From: Bacteriovoracia bacterium
GTDB lineage: Bacteria; Bdellovibrionota; UBA1018; JBFWNL01
DNA: 32,000 bases
Assembly: GCA_050251055.1 (NCBI GenBank)
Contig: JBFWNL010000004.1
Coordinates: forward strand, 13,863-45,862
Direction: 5' to 3'
Both the position numbers and the translations under genes were made by a program. The notes beneath the pieces were generated by a model. The model had not been told where the DNA came from and did not search any database. It saw nothing but the letters and a program-made list of their open reading frames with translations. Of this stretch, positions 13,018-16,236 are shown piece after piece (the stretch's first letter is position 1; each line of letters opens with the position of its first letter).

Positions 13018-13813
13018 GGAAGCGATACACACCACCCGGGCAAGCCGGGCCGTACGAGGCGCAGCGCTCACGCTGCTGGCCGTCGTGTGTGCCGCGTTTC
13101 CCCAAGGCTGCGCCTCCATGAAGAACGCTCTAGGCTTAAACAACAATCAGCAGGAACCTTCGAAACCCATCGAAGACCCGTTTGGAAACTTCTACGAAGC
13201 GGCCAAGCACCGCAACGAAAATGTGATTTTACGCACGAAAAAAGGTGACCGCTCCATTGAGGTGGAGATGCCTTCGCGCGGTGAAGAGCAGCTCGCCGAT
13301 CTGGTGGTCCCGATGTCGCCCCAGTTCGCCGACACCGGCTCCGGCCGCGGCCCCGCCTCAACGGGGGACGGCTACGGCCTGGACGCGAAGTACCAGGAGC
13401 AACGGCCTGGCCTTACGGACCGCGAAATCGCCCAGAGCATGCCCCAAGGCAGCCCGGAAATGGCCGGGAAACGCAGCGAAATCGAAGAGGGTTTGGGCCT
13501 GGTGGGCGCCGACGATTCCGCCCCCGAAAACGATAAGAGTTATCTGGCCGCGATCGACTACATTAAGCAGCTCTATAAGAGCCGGCGTTACGAGGCGGCG
13601 CTCATCGAGATCGATCGCATGCTCCCTCGCTATCCGACGGACGCGAAGCTCTATGAGATGCGCGGGACCCTGCTCGCGAAGCTGGGCTACGAAGATCTAG
13701 CGATGAAGTCGTGGGAGCAAGCCCTGTCCCTGAACCCGCGTAACAAGTCGTTAGCCAAGTTTCTGCAAGCCCGGAAGGATCCATTGAGAAGGGGGACGGC
13801 GTCATCGCCCTAA
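13004..13813 (+). CDS. Exported TPR-repeat protein
   Basis: The track ORF starts at GTG 12959. I prefer GTG 13004, which has GGAG at 12991-12994, 9 nt upstream. That gives RASRAVRGAALTLLAVVCAAFPQGCAS as a signal peptide (cleaved or lipid-anchored at C). The C-terminus holds TPR units (YLAAIDYIKQLYKSRRYEAALIEIDRMLPRYPTDAKLYEMRGTLLAKLGYEDLAMKSWEQALSLNP). The stop overlaps the next start (TAATG 13811-13815). Confidence 0.7.
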   Translation: MRYFKEAIHTTRASRAVRGAALTLLAVVCAAFPQGCASMKNALGLNNNQQEPSKPIEDPFGNFYEAAKHRNENVILRTKKGDRSIEVEMPSRGEEQLADLVVPMSPQFADTGSGRGPASTGDGYGLDAKYQEQRPGLTDREIAQSMPQGSPEMAGKRSEIEEGLGLVGADDSAPENDKSYLAAIDYIKQLYKSRRYEAALIEIDRMLPRYPTDAKLYEMRGTLLAKLGYEDLAMKSWEQALSLNPRNKSLAKFLQARKDPLRRGTASSP

Positions 13814-16236
13814 TGAATATGGTGAAGCATTCCTTCAACTACCGCCAAATCATTCTCTGGGGGCTGACCCTTTATCTCACGCTCGCCACGCCGTTCGCCT
13901 TCGGCAGCAGCTATCAGGACTACGAGCGCGTGAAACGCGCTTCCGAAACCCAAGTGCGCAACATCGTGCAGCCGCTCGTTTCTAAATACTGCCAAGACCA
14001 ATGCGAGCTCTTGAACGTCGAGGCGGAAGTAAAGACGGATGATCCGGCGGCGATCGCCCCGGGGTTCGAGGACACGGACACCGCTGGCGGCTTACGCCTG
14101 GTGCCGGCGGTCGTGCGGGTGAAGCTCTTGATCGACGAGATGGTCGGCCCCAACCTGCGCCGTAACCTCATTGACCTCATCCATAAGCACCTCAACGCGA
14201 TGGAATATCCGGTGGCGATCGACACTACGCTCACGCGCTTCCCGCAACCCTTGAACTCCGCACGCAAGGTCGCTGAGCTGCGGGACAAGGTCACGAAACA
14301 ATTCAAAGAAACGCTGGGCCAGCTTTTCAACCAATTCTGTCCTGAGCAATGCCTCCTGGCCGACTATGACATTAAGGTCGAACCGGTTAACTTAGAGGAA
14401 ACGCAGTACGGTTCCTCGGGCGAATACGTGCAGGACGGCGACACCGCGATCCGCGTGAAGAAAGTGACCGGCACGGTGCTCCTCGACACGACGCTCACGC
14501 CCGACGAGCAAAACAACATCATTGAAATGACGAAGCTCAAGACGAGCTACCTCAAGAACGTCGAGCTCATGGCCCAAACCATGACGTTTCCGCATCCACT
14601 ACCGTTCGAAGGCGACGGAAAGCTGGGCGTGGGTCGCGGAGGGCTGGCGGGCCGCGGGGGCAAGAGCCTCTCGGAATCGCGCTCGCTCGCCTCCAACAGC
14701 GACTCCAAGTCGACCTTAAGCAAGCTCGATAAGCAAAATTCCACCAGCAACAGCACGAATAGCAACAACAGCACCAACAGCAGCTCGAACAACGTCAACA
14801 GCAAGGACGCGATCGAGAAAAATGAAAACGCCACGAAGAACGAAAAGTTCGAGCGCTACGAGAAGATCGAGCGCGTGGAAGACGGCGATGCCGTTCAAGA
14901 ACAGCTCAAACGATACGGCCTAATCGCCCTGGTTTTCGGCTGTTCCGTGGTGGCGCTCATGGTGCTCATGTGGATCGCGCTGGCGCGTCGCAACGACCGC
15001 GGTCGCGCGGGCGGACTGCCGCGCTTTATCCAGGGGATCACCCCCGAGTTCCTGCAGCCCAAGGCGCCCGCCGCCGGCGATGGCGGCGTCGGATCCGGTC
15101 GTGGCGAGCTCATCGCCAAGCGGTACGAGATCGAGCAGCTTTGCGAAGAGCTTACCAAGGTGTTTGCCGAGCAGCCCAAGGTGGCCAAACACGTCTTTAC
15201 CCGCATCCTGACCGAAGAGGGCGTCGAAATCACCGCCGACTACCTCGCGATCTTTGGCGAAACGATCGTCATGGACATGTTGCGCGATCCGAACCTACAG
15301 CGTGACTTGACCGAACTGATGGAGTTCTTCGCGAAGAATCAGATTGAGCTCAACGACGACGAGAAACTCGATCGCTTAAAACGGTTGCACAACCGCACGG
15401 TCGCTTCGAAGCTGATCGTGATGGGCAAACGTACGTCCAACTCGTTCGAGTTCCTGTTCGACATGGACAGCCTGCAGGTGTTGGAGCTGATCAAGAACGA
15501 ATCCGTCACCGTGAAGGCGATCGTCATCACGCAATGCGACCCGCAGAAGCGCACGGCTATCTTCAACCATCTGGACGAGCCGACGCGCATGAAGCTCCTG
15601 AACGAACTCTCGCGTATCGACTACCTGCCGCGCGACTACATCTTCAACGTGGCCAACGCTCTCAAGCGCAAGCGTCAGGACAACCCGAAGCTCAACACGG
15701 AAGCCCTGCCGGGATCCGACGTGCTGGTCGGATTGCTCGAACGCACGCCCTTCGATATTCAACGCAATGTCGTGCAACAGCTCGAAGCCACCAACCCCGA
15801 CAACGCCCGGGCGGTCAAGAGCAAGCTCGTCAGCATCGACACGCTCACGTATCTACGCGATGCCCAGCTGCTCGAGATGGTCATGGGCCTGAAGCATGAC
15901 GAGCTCCTGCAGTTCCTGAAAGGCGCGCCGAAGCATATCTGCGACACGATCTACCGCAAGGCTCCGAAGGAGCTCGTCGAAGAACTCAACGAAGAGTTGG
16001 GATCGGTGTCCGAAGTGGGACGCGATGCCTACCAGACCATCGAGCGTAAGCTCATCAATCGCATCAAAGTCATGGCCAACGAGGGCCACATCAACCTCGT
16101 GGAAACCAACGAGCGGATGTTCACCGATCGGCAAAGCAACGTCGAGGCGATCACCCGCGGCGGCCAGGGCGGCGACGGCAACACCGGTGGCATGACGGGC
16201 ACGGGCGGGCAGTTCAAGAAAGTGGCGGGTTGGTGA
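13813..16236 (+). CDS. Bitopic membrane protein: SctJ/FliF-like periplasmic module (two RBM-like repeats) fused through a TM helix to a full-length FliG-like cytoplasmic module
   Basis: 807 aa. Features in order:
- N-terminal hydrophobic segment IILWGLTLYLTLATPFAFG.
- Residues ~45-265: two tandem repeats.
- N/S/T-rich linker.
- TM LIALVFGCSVVALMVLMWIALA (residues ~369-391).
- The cytoplasmic ~400 aa align by eye with FliG.

SFEFLFDMDSLQVLELIKNESVTVKAIVITQCDPQKRTAIFNHLDEPTRMKLLNELSRI matches FliG_M 'PFsFv...dp.ql..fl..EHPQtiAvvLsyLdP..aa.il..Lpe..q.ev..Ria'. LTYLRDAQLLEMVMGLKHDELLQFLKGAPKHICDTIYRKAPKELVEELNEELGSVSEVGRDAYQTIERKLINRIKVMANEGHINL matches FliG_C 'FeDi..Ldd..iq.vLrevd...La.ALKGAs.elkekif.NMSkRAa..lk.ELe.mGPVr..dVeeAQ..Ii.i.rrLeeaGeI'. 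Confidence 0.7.
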   Translation: MNMVKHSFNYRQIILWGLTLYLTLATPFAFGSSYQDYERVKRASETQVRNIVQPLVSKYCQDQCELLNVEAEVKTDDPAAIAPGFEDTDTAGGLRLVPAVVRVKLLIDEMVGPNLRRNLIDLIHKHLNAMEYPVAIDTTLTRFPQPLNSARKVAELRDKVTKQFKETLGQLFNQFCPEQCLLADYDIKVEPVNLEETQYGSSGEYVQDGDTAIRVKKVTGTVLLDTTLTPDEQNNIIEMTKLKTSYLKNVELMAQTMTFPHPLPFEGDGKLGVGRGGLAGRGGKSLSESRSLASNSDSKSTLSKLDKQNSTSNSTNSNNSTNSSSNNVNSKDAIEKNENATKNEKFERYEKIERVEDGDAVQEQLKRYGLIALVFGCSVVALMVLMWIALARRNDRGRAGGLPRFIQGITPEFLQPKAPAAGDGGVGSGRGELIAKRYEIEQLCEELTKVFAEQPKVAKHVFTRILTEEGVEITADYLAIFGETIVMDMLRDPNLQRDLTELMEFFAKNQIELNDDEKLDRLKRLHNRTVASKLIVMGKRTSNSFEFLFDMDSLQVLELIKNESVTVKAIVITQCDPQKRTAIFNHLDEPTRMKLLNELSRIDYLPRDYIFNVANALKRKRQDNPKLNTEALPGSDVLVGLLERTPFDIQRNVVQQLEATNPDNARAVKSKLVSIDTLTYLRDAQLLEMVMGLKHDELLQFLKGAPKHICDTIYRKAPKELVEELNEELGSVSEVGRDAYQTIERKLINRIKVMANEGHINLVETNERMFTDRQSNVEAITRGGQGGDGNTGGMTGTGGQFKKVAGW

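Follow-up and report, generated by a model that had tools for sequence, protein, structure and literature searches.

Which machine would a FliG serve that is fused to a membrane anchor of its own and encoded beside its own stator, a flagellum or something else? The question is raised by a gene at positions 13813-16236 (forward strand) of the stretch of DNA analysed here (the window), which comprises 32,000 nucleotides of contig JBFWNL010000004.1 (positions 13,863 to 45,862) in assembly GCA_050251055.1 of a Bacteriovoracia bacterium (Bdellovibrionota). A first-pass annotation, made from the sequence alone, had described the product as an apparent natural fusion of a FliF- or SctJ-like protein with FliG. 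Our results indicate a complete but divergent FliG behind a periplasmic half whose modelled fold resembles the ring-building motif (RBM) domains of FliF, with the genes of a flagellar-type MotAB stator close by. On balance it seems probable that the fusion protein belongs to a dedicated rotor-stator module that is derived from the flagellar motor, has neither rod, hook and export gate nor FliM/FliN, and is separate from the canonical basal body.

Architecture of the fusion protein

The open reading frame encodes 807 amino acids; it exists as had been proposed, and it is conserved. A homology search returned more than 120 full-length homologues with 44-57% identity, a genome scan found the gene in 73 species-level genomes, all of them metagenome-assembled genomes (MAGs), and 150 cluster representatives at 50% identity came from an exhaustive search with a profile of the periplasmic module. 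Such conservation is not to be expected of an open reading frame that arose by chance. The NCBI version (P0001), from a Bacteriovoracia MAG, starts at the second ATG and gives 805 residues under the name 'FliG C-terminal domain-containing protein'. The family profile was built from an alignment of 66 members of the fusion family (A1), and frequencies given below as fractions of 66 refer to 66 family members. The AlphaFold2 model of the fusion protein has a mean pLDDT (predicted local distance difference test score) of 78.9, with values above 90 in the folded parts. The features of the gene are as follows, with the evidence for each in brackets.

13813..13902, forward strand: putative Sec-type signal peptide, residues 1-30 (n/h/c regions of the family, AXA-like sites)
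13903..14583, forward strand: two tandem alpha-beta-beta-alpha-beta units, residues 31-257 (31-141 and 147-257; AlphaFold2/DSSP, Foldseek, hhalign)
14596..14841, forward strand: disordered Ser/Asn/Thr-rich periplasmic tether, residues 262-343 (pLDDT, composition)
14842..14985, forward strand: juxtamembrane motif and transmembrane helix (368-391), residues 344-391 (family conservation, model helix)
15097..16098, forward strand: FliG-like cytoplasmic module, residues 429-762 (Pfam, family profile, Foldseek)
15913..16023, forward strand: stator-facing 'torque helix' region, residues 701-737 (FliG alignment, family frequencies)
16216..16233, forward strand: KKVAGW hexapeptide, residues 802-807 (conserved C-terminus behind a disordered Gly-rich tail)

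From its N-terminus the protein consists of a hydrophobic segment, about 335 periplasmic residues, a transmembrane helix (residues 368-391, part of a helix modelled at 358-392) and about 415 cytoplasmic residues. Acidic residues precede the helix 368-391 and the string RRNDRGR follows it, which gives the 415 residues behind the helix a cytoplasmic location. The N-termini of family members end in AXA-like sites such as ALA/AEP, AHA/ANS and AFA/ART (the slash marks the predicted cut), and the hydrophobic stretch at this end resembles a Sec signal peptide that can be cleaved off; the mature protein would therefore be single-pass, like SctJ and unlike FliF. The transmembrane, periplasmic and cytoplasmic parts had been placed correctly by the first-pass annotation; its N-terminal hydrophobic segment resembles a cleaved signal peptide and not a first transmembrane helix of the FliF type. 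Overall, the product is predicted to be a Sec-exported, single-pass inner-membrane protein.

The cytoplasmic half appears to be a complete but divergent FliG, and it is not an orthologous FliG. Pfam FliG_M (PF14841) matches residues 555-624 with 35.0 bits against a cut-off of 25, and FliG_C (PF01706) matches residues 656-762 with 44.5 bits against a cut-off of 23.3. The family profile matches crystal structures of FliG (3ajc, 3hjl, 1lkv; E ~1e-11). In Foldseek the model covers 315 of the 321 columns of full-length Aquifex aeolicus FliG (3hjl, E = 3e-8) and also matches the FliG chains of the Salmonella C-ring. The support for the N-like domain (residues 429-513) is structural: it is confidently helical in the model, and PF14842 gives no match to it at E <= 1. 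The equivalog TIGR00207 (fliG) is not reached (50.7 bits against a cut-off of 226.7). The likeness to all three FliG domains, which had been seen by eye, is borne out by the two Pfam domains above their cut-offs and by a structural match that spans full-length FliG.

FliG and MgtE_N have a common fold, and it could be argued that the protein is not a rotor at all. It would then carry a FliG/MgtE_N-like regulatory or sensor domain of a receptor, or it would be a tether of the TonB/TolA kind, energised by a 5:2 motor without a ring or rotation. Weak MgtE_N matches do occur in the superfamily, chiefly in the single-unit variants described below, and a long flexible tether with a distal folded domain recalls TonB/TolA logic. 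We nevertheless think this reading improbable. FliG_M and FliG_C pass their cut-offs and MgtE_N fails its own, and this was the comparison that the first-pass annotation had singled out. MgtE_N (PF03448) was rejected as the identity of the domain; it reaches 21.9 bits against a cut-off of 25.9 and covers just 45 residues (557-601), and neither a CBS domain nor the MgtE membrane domain was found in the fusion protein. An RBM-like topology, in turn, points to oligomerisation. As for the tether version of the argument, it differs in degree, since MotA would still act on the FliG-like domain.

The residues by which FliG contacts its partners are changed in a consistent manner. FliG positions are given in E. 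coli numbering, from an alignment with the FliG proteins of E. coli, Thermotoga maritima and A. aeolicus. E125-H126-P127-Q128 of E. coli FliG align with E563-S564-V565-T566 of the fusion protein. The equivalent of E125 is Glu and that of Q128 is Thr in 66/66 members, H126 is replaced by Ser in 63/66 and P127 by Leu, Ile or Val, and the equivalent of R160 is Glu in 66/66. The FliM-binding EHPQ...R therefore reads E-S-[LIV]-T...E in the family. EHPQ had earlier been said to read NESV; the loss of the motif stands, and the register was off by one residue. The Gly-Gly linker has become P-G in 66/66 and the MFxF hinge L-V-S-[ILV], in agreement with the earlier reading of the latter as LVSIDTL, a string found at residues 672-678.

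In the stator-facing region, K703 corresponds to K264 (Lys or Arg in 65/66), E727 and E728 correspond to D288 (Glu or Asp in 65/66) and D289 (Glu in 63/66), and R737 adjoins the position of R297, where the family has Ser, Asn or Gly and then Arg or Lys in 64/66. E720 lies at the position of R281, which is Glu or Asp in 64/66, and K719 aligns with E. coli Q280. The strings quoted for this region by the first-pass annotation are present (FLKGAP at residues 701-706 and YRKAPKELVEELNEELGS at 714-731). Its description of the latter as a basic-then-acidic torque helix holds for the acidic part and fails at the R281 position. The same pattern extends to the wider superfamily: the R281 equivalent is Glu or Asp in 64/67 two-unit representatives, and the D289 equivalent is Glu in 36/39 single-unit representatives. 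The acidic stator-facing residues are thus the most persistent feature of the superfamily, which argues against a domain with a sensory or merely regulatory role. As far as the alignments go, the functional motifs are rewired and not decayed.

The periplasmic half consists of two units, both assigned the order H-E-E-H-E by DSSP and modelled with pLDDT values that mostly exceed 90. The RBMs of FliF, SctJ and SctD have this topology. The units are homologous to one another (hhalign 97%, E = 2e-11) and represent an internal duplication. Each contains an invariant CxxxC (C60/C64 and C176/C180); one CxxxC per unit is found in 83/85 superfamily representatives, and in two-unit proteins the motifs are about 117 residues apart. 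With the periplasmic domain alone as query, the best Foldseek match is the Salmonella FliF MS-ring (7bk0_B, E = 2.6e-6), followed by 6scn_A (1.3e-5), further MS-ring entries and YscD (3.9e-3). In the model, neither a third RBM nor a beta-collar was found. Between this domain and the membrane lies the tether, with pLDDT <50 across residues 267-355. Across the family it is 29-98 residues long (median 70) and is composed of 19% Ser, 14% Asn and 12% Thr. It is followed by the juxtamembrane motif E-x-F-E-R-x-EKIERVE-x-GDAVQ-x-EL, in which E353, R354, V355, E356 and G358 are present in 66/66 members. At the other end of the protein, a C-terminal tail of the [KR]K[VA][AS]GW type occurs in about 40/66 members, and KKVAGW may be a docking motif. 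In the distant two-unit clade the C-termini tend towards hydrophobic-V-A in place of this tail.

Could the fusion simply be the MS-ring/C-ring protein of this lineage, replacing separate fliF and fliG? Salmonella FliF-FliG fusion mutants stay motile, which would be in keeping with such a role. The Vibrio FliF-FliG fusion 8z4d is among the PDB sequence matches, filament genes lie nearby, and some sources annotate the product as 'flagellar motor switch protein FliG'. Engineered full-length FliF-FliG fusions reportedly build rings (PMC10941966, PMC6079021). The architecture described above makes this role very improbable all the same. Two RBM-like units are present without the RBM3 and beta-collar that house the export gate and rod in FliF (PMC4768692); PF01514 is null and TIGR00207 is far below its cut-off; the FliM-binding EHPQR is replaced in 66/66; and a long disordered tether lies between the membrane and the periplasmic domain.

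Stator and rotor-stator contact

The fusion gene had been said to lie next to its own stator, and two genes in its operon encode a flagellar-type MotAB by structure alignment and by Pfam.

16751..17536, forward strand: MotA/PomA-like stator A subunit (end-to-end structure alignment)
17555..18370, forward strand: MotB-type stator B subunit (Pfam MotB_plug, E = 1e-18; OmpA, E = 4e-13)

The alignment of MotA with MotA/PomA structures runs over its whole length (E ~1e-32). Its best NCBIfam matches are MotP, MotA and PomA, all below their cut-offs. The prolines of transmembrane helices 3 and 4 are retained, the motifs PAFG and LPIA are present, and identity across loci is 61-75%. MotB has a plug, the transmembrane Asp (SYADMMT, with the YADMMT motif) and an OmpA-like peptidoglycan-binding domain; MotB_plug and OmpA both score above their cut-offs. 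The stator looks to be of flagellar type and functional, with the hallmarks of the ion channel intact. A flagellar-type stator with a plug, and not one of the ExbBD/TolQR type, as partner argues further against a sensor or a TonB/TolA-like tether.

The loop of MotA that contacts the rotor reads KKAS[ILV]-GL[ST]AL[NSKQ][ED] where canonical MotA has RKARREGLLSLED. The equivalent of R90 is Ser, Ala or Gly. The equivalent of E98, in 67 stators, is Asn in 31, Ser in 10, Lys in 8 and Gln in 8, with Lys in the window. Upstream of the altered positions a basic pair is present in 67/67. The stators of the distant loci L077 and L078, described below, likewise have no acidic equivalent of E98. MotA numbering was set by eye via the motif of Clostridium sporogenes MotA, as MAFFT misaligned E. 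coli MotA in the cytoplasmic loop; a short-fragment PDB search for PomA numbering returned spurious sigma-70 matches only.

Two charge pairs join stator and rotor in the canonical motor, namely MotA R90 with FliG D289 and MotA E98 with FliG R281 (PMC7564593; PMC12505986). Judged from the aligned residues, the E98-R281 pair is lost on both sides in this family, and an acidic pair on FliG and a basic patch on MotA remain. A clean swap of charges (MotA E98 to Lys, FliG R281 to Glu) was considered and rejected; the window itself shows the swap, but Lys occurs in just 8/67 stators.

A stator of flagellar type could also point to the flagellum itself, with the fusion as an accessory part of the canonical motor. 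It would form an extra ring or scaffold around the basal body that recruits a specialised second set of stators, or a 'parking' or clutch ring that engages stators or sequesters them under the control of cyclic nucleotides. We rate this as unlikely, and less so than the two alternatives above. The stator has no equivalents of R90 and E98, which would be needed to drive canonical FliG, and a membrane-anchored, full FliG N-M-C together with a co-evolved stator exceeds what a scaffold needs. TPR (tetratricopeptide repeat) proteins such as PflA and PflB of Campylobacter are periplasmic scaffolds of elaborate motors, and the TPR partner described below counts in favour of an accessory part.

Operon, distribution and a possible flagellar link

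Neighbouring genes were counted in 74 related Bdellovibrionota loci. The order in the operon is 411-residue envelope protein, TPR lipoprotein, fusion, cyclic nucleotide (cNMP)-binding protein, MotA and MotB, with a Zn-ribbon/SH3 gene after it. Stop and start codons overlap by 1 nt at three junctions (TPR/fusion, TAATG; fusion/cNMP, TGATG; cNMP/MotA, TAATG), and the genes from TPR to motA are predicted to be translationally coupled in one operon. Beside the fusion gene, MotA is found in 70/74 loci, MotB in 66/74, the TPR gene in 66/74, the cNMP gene in 63/74 and the 411-residue protein gene in 61/74; many of the missing neighbours are probably due to contig ends. The remaining genes of the locus are as follows.

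10565..11584, reverse strand: 339-residue lipoprotein, divergently transcribed (LTAGC lipobox, Pro/Ala-rich C-terminus; homologue in 52/74 loci)
11782..13017, forward strand: 411-residue exported protein (signal peptide, Pro/Ala/Thr-rich spacer, domain of about 330 residues)
12959..13813, forward strand: TPR lipoprotein (FPQGC lipobox, C-terminal TPR repeats)
16236..16751, forward strand: stand-alone cNMP-binding protein of about 171 residues (Pfam cNMP_binding, E = 1e-19)
18418..19452, forward strand: Zn-ribbon/transmembrane/SH3-like protein (weak Zn_ribbon and SH3 matches; membership of the system uncertain)

The 411-residue protein has homologues at 48-67% identity across loci and an invariant CxxC (C148, C151). 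Its family profile gives no PDB match at E <= 10. Weak Autotransporter and DUF3575 matches were obtained, and towards its C-terminus the protein may form a beta-barrel in the outer membrane. In the TPR lipoprotein, no TPR match reaches its Pfam cut-off. The GTG listed as the start of its gene overlaps the 411-residue protein gene by 59 nt and the lipobox lies about 50 codons in, so that the start is probably downstream of this GTG. The cNMP-binding protein has an intact phosphate-binding cassette (FFGEMSL...PRSATV) and is probably the regulator of the module. In one subclade (L043, L044, L046, L047, L049, L054, L055, L061 and L071) its gene is absent from between the fusion gene and motA.

On the reading that we favour, a dedicated rotor-stator module, the fusion protein would be the rotor-side partner of the MotA5B2 complex encoded two genes downstream. 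It would oligomerise via its RBM-like units, probably into a ring. Ion flow through MotAB would turn the MotA pentamer, which would push against the FliG-like domain at its acidic C-terminal 'torque helix', and this force would move the oligomeric fusion assembly in the membrane. Motion or force would then pass via the transmembrane helix and the tether to the periplasmic domains, and from these to the 411-residue and TPR partners. The cNMP-binding protein, and not a CheY/FliM switch, would be the likely regulator, acting perhaps at the E-S-x-T...E surface that replaces the FliM site. It is possible, and we put it forward tentatively, that the whole is a self-contained ion-driven rotary or force-transducing machine freed from the flagellum, made up of a fused RBM-FliG rotor that has neither rod nor export gate, with its own MotAB, cyclic-nucleotide control and a tether to an outer-envelope module. 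A link of the module to motility or predation is a guess.

The search with a hidden Markov model of the periplasmic module returned three tiers of proteins, namely the core (700-830 residues), distant two-unit proteins (720-990 residues) and single-unit proteins (540-625 residues). All 10 representatives tested have C-termini of the FliG_C, FliG_M or MgtE_N type, with no FliF among them. Three distant loci illustrate the variation. L077 encodes a 969-residue two-unit variant in the order 403-residue protein, 281-residue protein, MotA, MotB, fusion; P0219 is a 603-residue single-unit variant in the order MotA, MotB, fusion; and L078, on a 7.5-Mb contig, encodes a 611-residue single-unit variant in the order 689-residue protein, MotA, MotB, fusion. 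The 403- and 281-residue proteins of L077 are homologues of the 411-residue and TPR proteins (E = 8e-38 and 1e-12). In the 689-residue protein of L078 (6226-8295), the N-terminal part of the 411-residue protein is fused with the TPR partner, which forms the C-terminal half, and this is evidence for joint action of the two partners. The association of the fusion with MotAB, the 411-residue protein and the TPR protein thus survives rearrangement of gene order. Homologues of the 339-residue lipoprotein were not found in L077 and L078.

Envelope proteins as partners are also what Tol-Pal and Agl-Glt have, and in this respect they count towards the non-rotor reading weighed above, as does a weak TonB_C-like protein in the L078 cluster. 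This is a 180-residue protein encoded two places downstream of the fusion gene (L078 12823-13365; E = 0.008, below the cut-off). Two OMP_b-brl proteins are encoded upstream in this cluster.

With the distant variants as queries, homology searches returned 11 and 13 matches. One single-unit relative is labelled Persicimonas sp. (Bradymonadales), and by this label the module spans two phyla, with predatory bacteria from both Bdellovibrionota and Myxococcota (Bradymonadia) carrying it. The type species, Persicimonas caeni, is flagellated (PMC7188933). The label of this genus fits an accessory part of the flagellum, and since the genus is flagellated it does not discriminate between a flagellar and a non-flagellar role. 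Several assemblies that bear the operon (L033, L054, L014, L042, L046 and L049) are labelled Lysobacteraceae, Nitrosovibrio sp. Nv4, Alphaproteobacteria, Pseudomonadota or Proteobacteria; such labels probably reflect mis-binning or mislabelled MAG taxonomy.

A number of observations weigh against a dedicated module with an RBM-based rotor. The likeness to FliF or SctJ, claimed by the first-pass annotation, holds for the fold and not for the sequence. The TM-scores of the FliF matches are low (0.27-0.34), and OsmC, BON and the CDF C-terminal domain, which have the same topology, are also among the Foldseek matches. No Pfam family, PF01514 included, matches residues 1-535; PF01514 is matched by 0/10 superfamily representatives; and the periplasmic family profile compared with E. 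coli FliF by hhalign gives a probability of 0.5%, that is, no signal. The periplasmic half is, in its modelled structure, RBM-like at the level of the fold alone. A tether of 29-98 residues is unlike the rings of FliF and SctJ, which sit on the membrane (our own comparison from the layouts in PMC4768692). Locus L080 (10001-12862) has the fusion and cNMP genes without adjacent MotAB; this locus and the losses of the cNMP gene in the subclade mean that regulator and stator are separable modules. Finally, flagellar filament genes are close. At 4.6-11 kb upstream the window contains fliD and two flagellin genes, flagellin is found in the flanks of 27/74 loci and also adjoins the single-unit variant P0219 at 1.5 kb, and every lineage in which the module has been seen so far either has flagella or may have them.

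The proximity of flagellin and fliD is what an accessory flagellar part would predict. Adjacency to flagellin in Bdellovibrionota may, however, be inherited synteny, and no flagellar gene was found within 10 kb of L078. The promoters speak against co-regulation with late flagellar genes. A sigma-28 (FliA)-type promoter, TAAAG-N16-ACCGAT, is present at 9349-9373 (reverse strand) upstream of the flagellin gene at 8312-9205, and such an element lies about 125-140 nt upstream of flagellin in 12/27 loci (L001, L005, L013, L015, L037 and L068 among them); the second flagellin gene of the window (6989-7822) shows no match to the pattern. The pattern was relaxed after a stricter form had missed the flagellin promoter. 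It was found upstream of the first gene of the operon in 0/56 loci, of the fusion gene in 0/67 and of motA in 0/71. The operon is thus without the sigma-28 promoter that neighbouring flagellin genes have, which speaks against an accessory part.

Missing genes count against the reading of the fusion as the flagellar rotor itself. With E. coli FliF and FliG as tblastn queries, no fliF or fliG was found within 10 kb on either side of the 74 loci, and the 74 neighbourhoods contain no genes for the export apparatus, the rod or fliM/fliN. In cultured Bdellovibrio and like organisms the canonical flagellar clusters are complete, and motAB is present in 1-4 separate pairs (PMC11323537). Their complete clusters count against a replacement of fliF and fliG, and their several motAB pairs count for an accessory part with its own stators.

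Three further genes were noted in the window. The Zn-ribbon/SH3 protein is present in 50/74 loci with 20-47% identity and is absent from the distant loci. Beyond it lie a 492-residue polytopic membrane protein with no Pfam match (19458-20936, reverse strand), syntenic with the operon in 40/74 loci, and an M14 carboxypeptidase (20937-21899, reverse strand), syntenic in 33/74. At 29692-31956 (reverse strand) a 754-residue protein has an unusual mix of DUF1284, TPR repeat and soluble lytic transglycosylase (SLT) domain.

Comparison with known systems

Flagellar FliF and FliG, and the engineered fusions of the two (the Salmonella deletion-fusion mutants and Vibrio 8z4d), resemble the fusion protein in combining a membrane protein, periplasmic alpha-beta-beta-alpha-beta domains and FliG N/M/C. 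The resemblance includes a charged helix of the C-domain that faces a MotAB-type stator, with the equivalents of K264, D288 and D289 kept. FliF differs in having RBM1, RBM2, RBM3 and a beta-collar in place of two self-similar CxxxC units, and two transmembrane helices where the fusion protein has a predicted cleaved signal peptide and one; the fusion protein has in addition the 29-98-residue tether, and its periplasmic part has no sequence similarity to FliF. Compared with flagellar FliG, EHPQR, GG and MFxF are replaced and the R281 position is acidic. Compared with the flagellar rotor as a whole, genes for the export gate, rod and FliM/FliN are not found nearby, and the stator is its own and co-evolved.

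FliF-FliG fusions had been regarded by the first-pass annotation as engineered or mutant constructs. This does not hold, since Chlamydiaceae have a natural FliF-FliG fusion of about 330 residues with two RBMs and a region like FliG M (Bergeron 2016, PMC4768692). The chlamydial protein is likewise a natural single polypeptide with two RBM-type domains, a transmembrane segment and a FliG-like region, and it too occurs outside a complete flagellar set (PMC4768692). It differs in its two transmembrane helices and in the recognisable similarity of one RBM to SctJ; MotAB is not among the few chlamydial flagellar genes listed, and an injectisome has been proposed as its partner (PMC4768692). The protein described here has the full FliG N/M/C with a conserved stator-facing helix, a dedicated MotAB, envelope and cNMP partners and the CxxxC repeat. 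Bergeron suggested that FliF-FliG fusions are possibly ancestral (PMC4768692).

SctJ (PrgK/EscJ/YscJ) shares the Sec signal, the two tandem periplasmic RBM-type domains and the single C-terminal transmembrane helix, and YscD, the other inner-ring RBM protein of the injectisome, is among the Foldseek matches. The fusion protein has no lipobox, no PF01514 match and no type III secretion genes nearby. Its units are larger (about 110 residues, with first helices of 29 residues and long strands), and where SctJ has a short tail it has a FliG-like cytoplasmic domain of 415 residues.

Searches of the literature found no description of the fusion family. If its three distinguishing properties, listed below, hold together, the family would be either the first case in which the torque interface of FliG and MotA is used outside the flagellum or a new accessory flagellar ring in predatory bacteria. 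Either outcome bears on the evolution of the flagellar motor, on the extra motors of predatory bacteria and on the electrostatic rewiring of rotor and stator, as one of the two canonical charge pairs is lost on both sides. With its five or six genes, the system is small enough for reconstitution and cryo-electron microscopy to be realistic.

The remaining comparison is with the other machines driven by ion-powered motors of the MotAB family, namely Tol-Pal, ExbBD-TonB, AglRQS-Glt, GldLM and Zorya. Here as there, the motor is accompanied by TPR, lipoprotein and possible outer-membrane partners, and by analogy a motor with envelope partners suggests transmission of force across the envelope. Zorya itself was rejected as the identity of the locus: PADLOC found no ZorA, ZorC or ZorD, and it left MotA, the fusion and the accessory proteins unmatched, with generic ZorB (MotB-like) matches only. 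The A subunits of these 5:2 motors are of the ExbB/TolQ or ZorA type, and they couple to their partners via transmembrane or periplasmic helices and not via FliG. The present locus has instead a flagellar-type stator with a plug. To our knowledge, FliG is known just as the torque receiver of the flagellum, the chlamydial fusion aside, and flagellar-type MotAB is not known to serve machines other than flagella. The system would be new if it has all three of its distinguishing properties together: a complete FliG on its own membrane and periplasmic anchor, a private co-adapted stator, and non-flagellar partners in the envelope.

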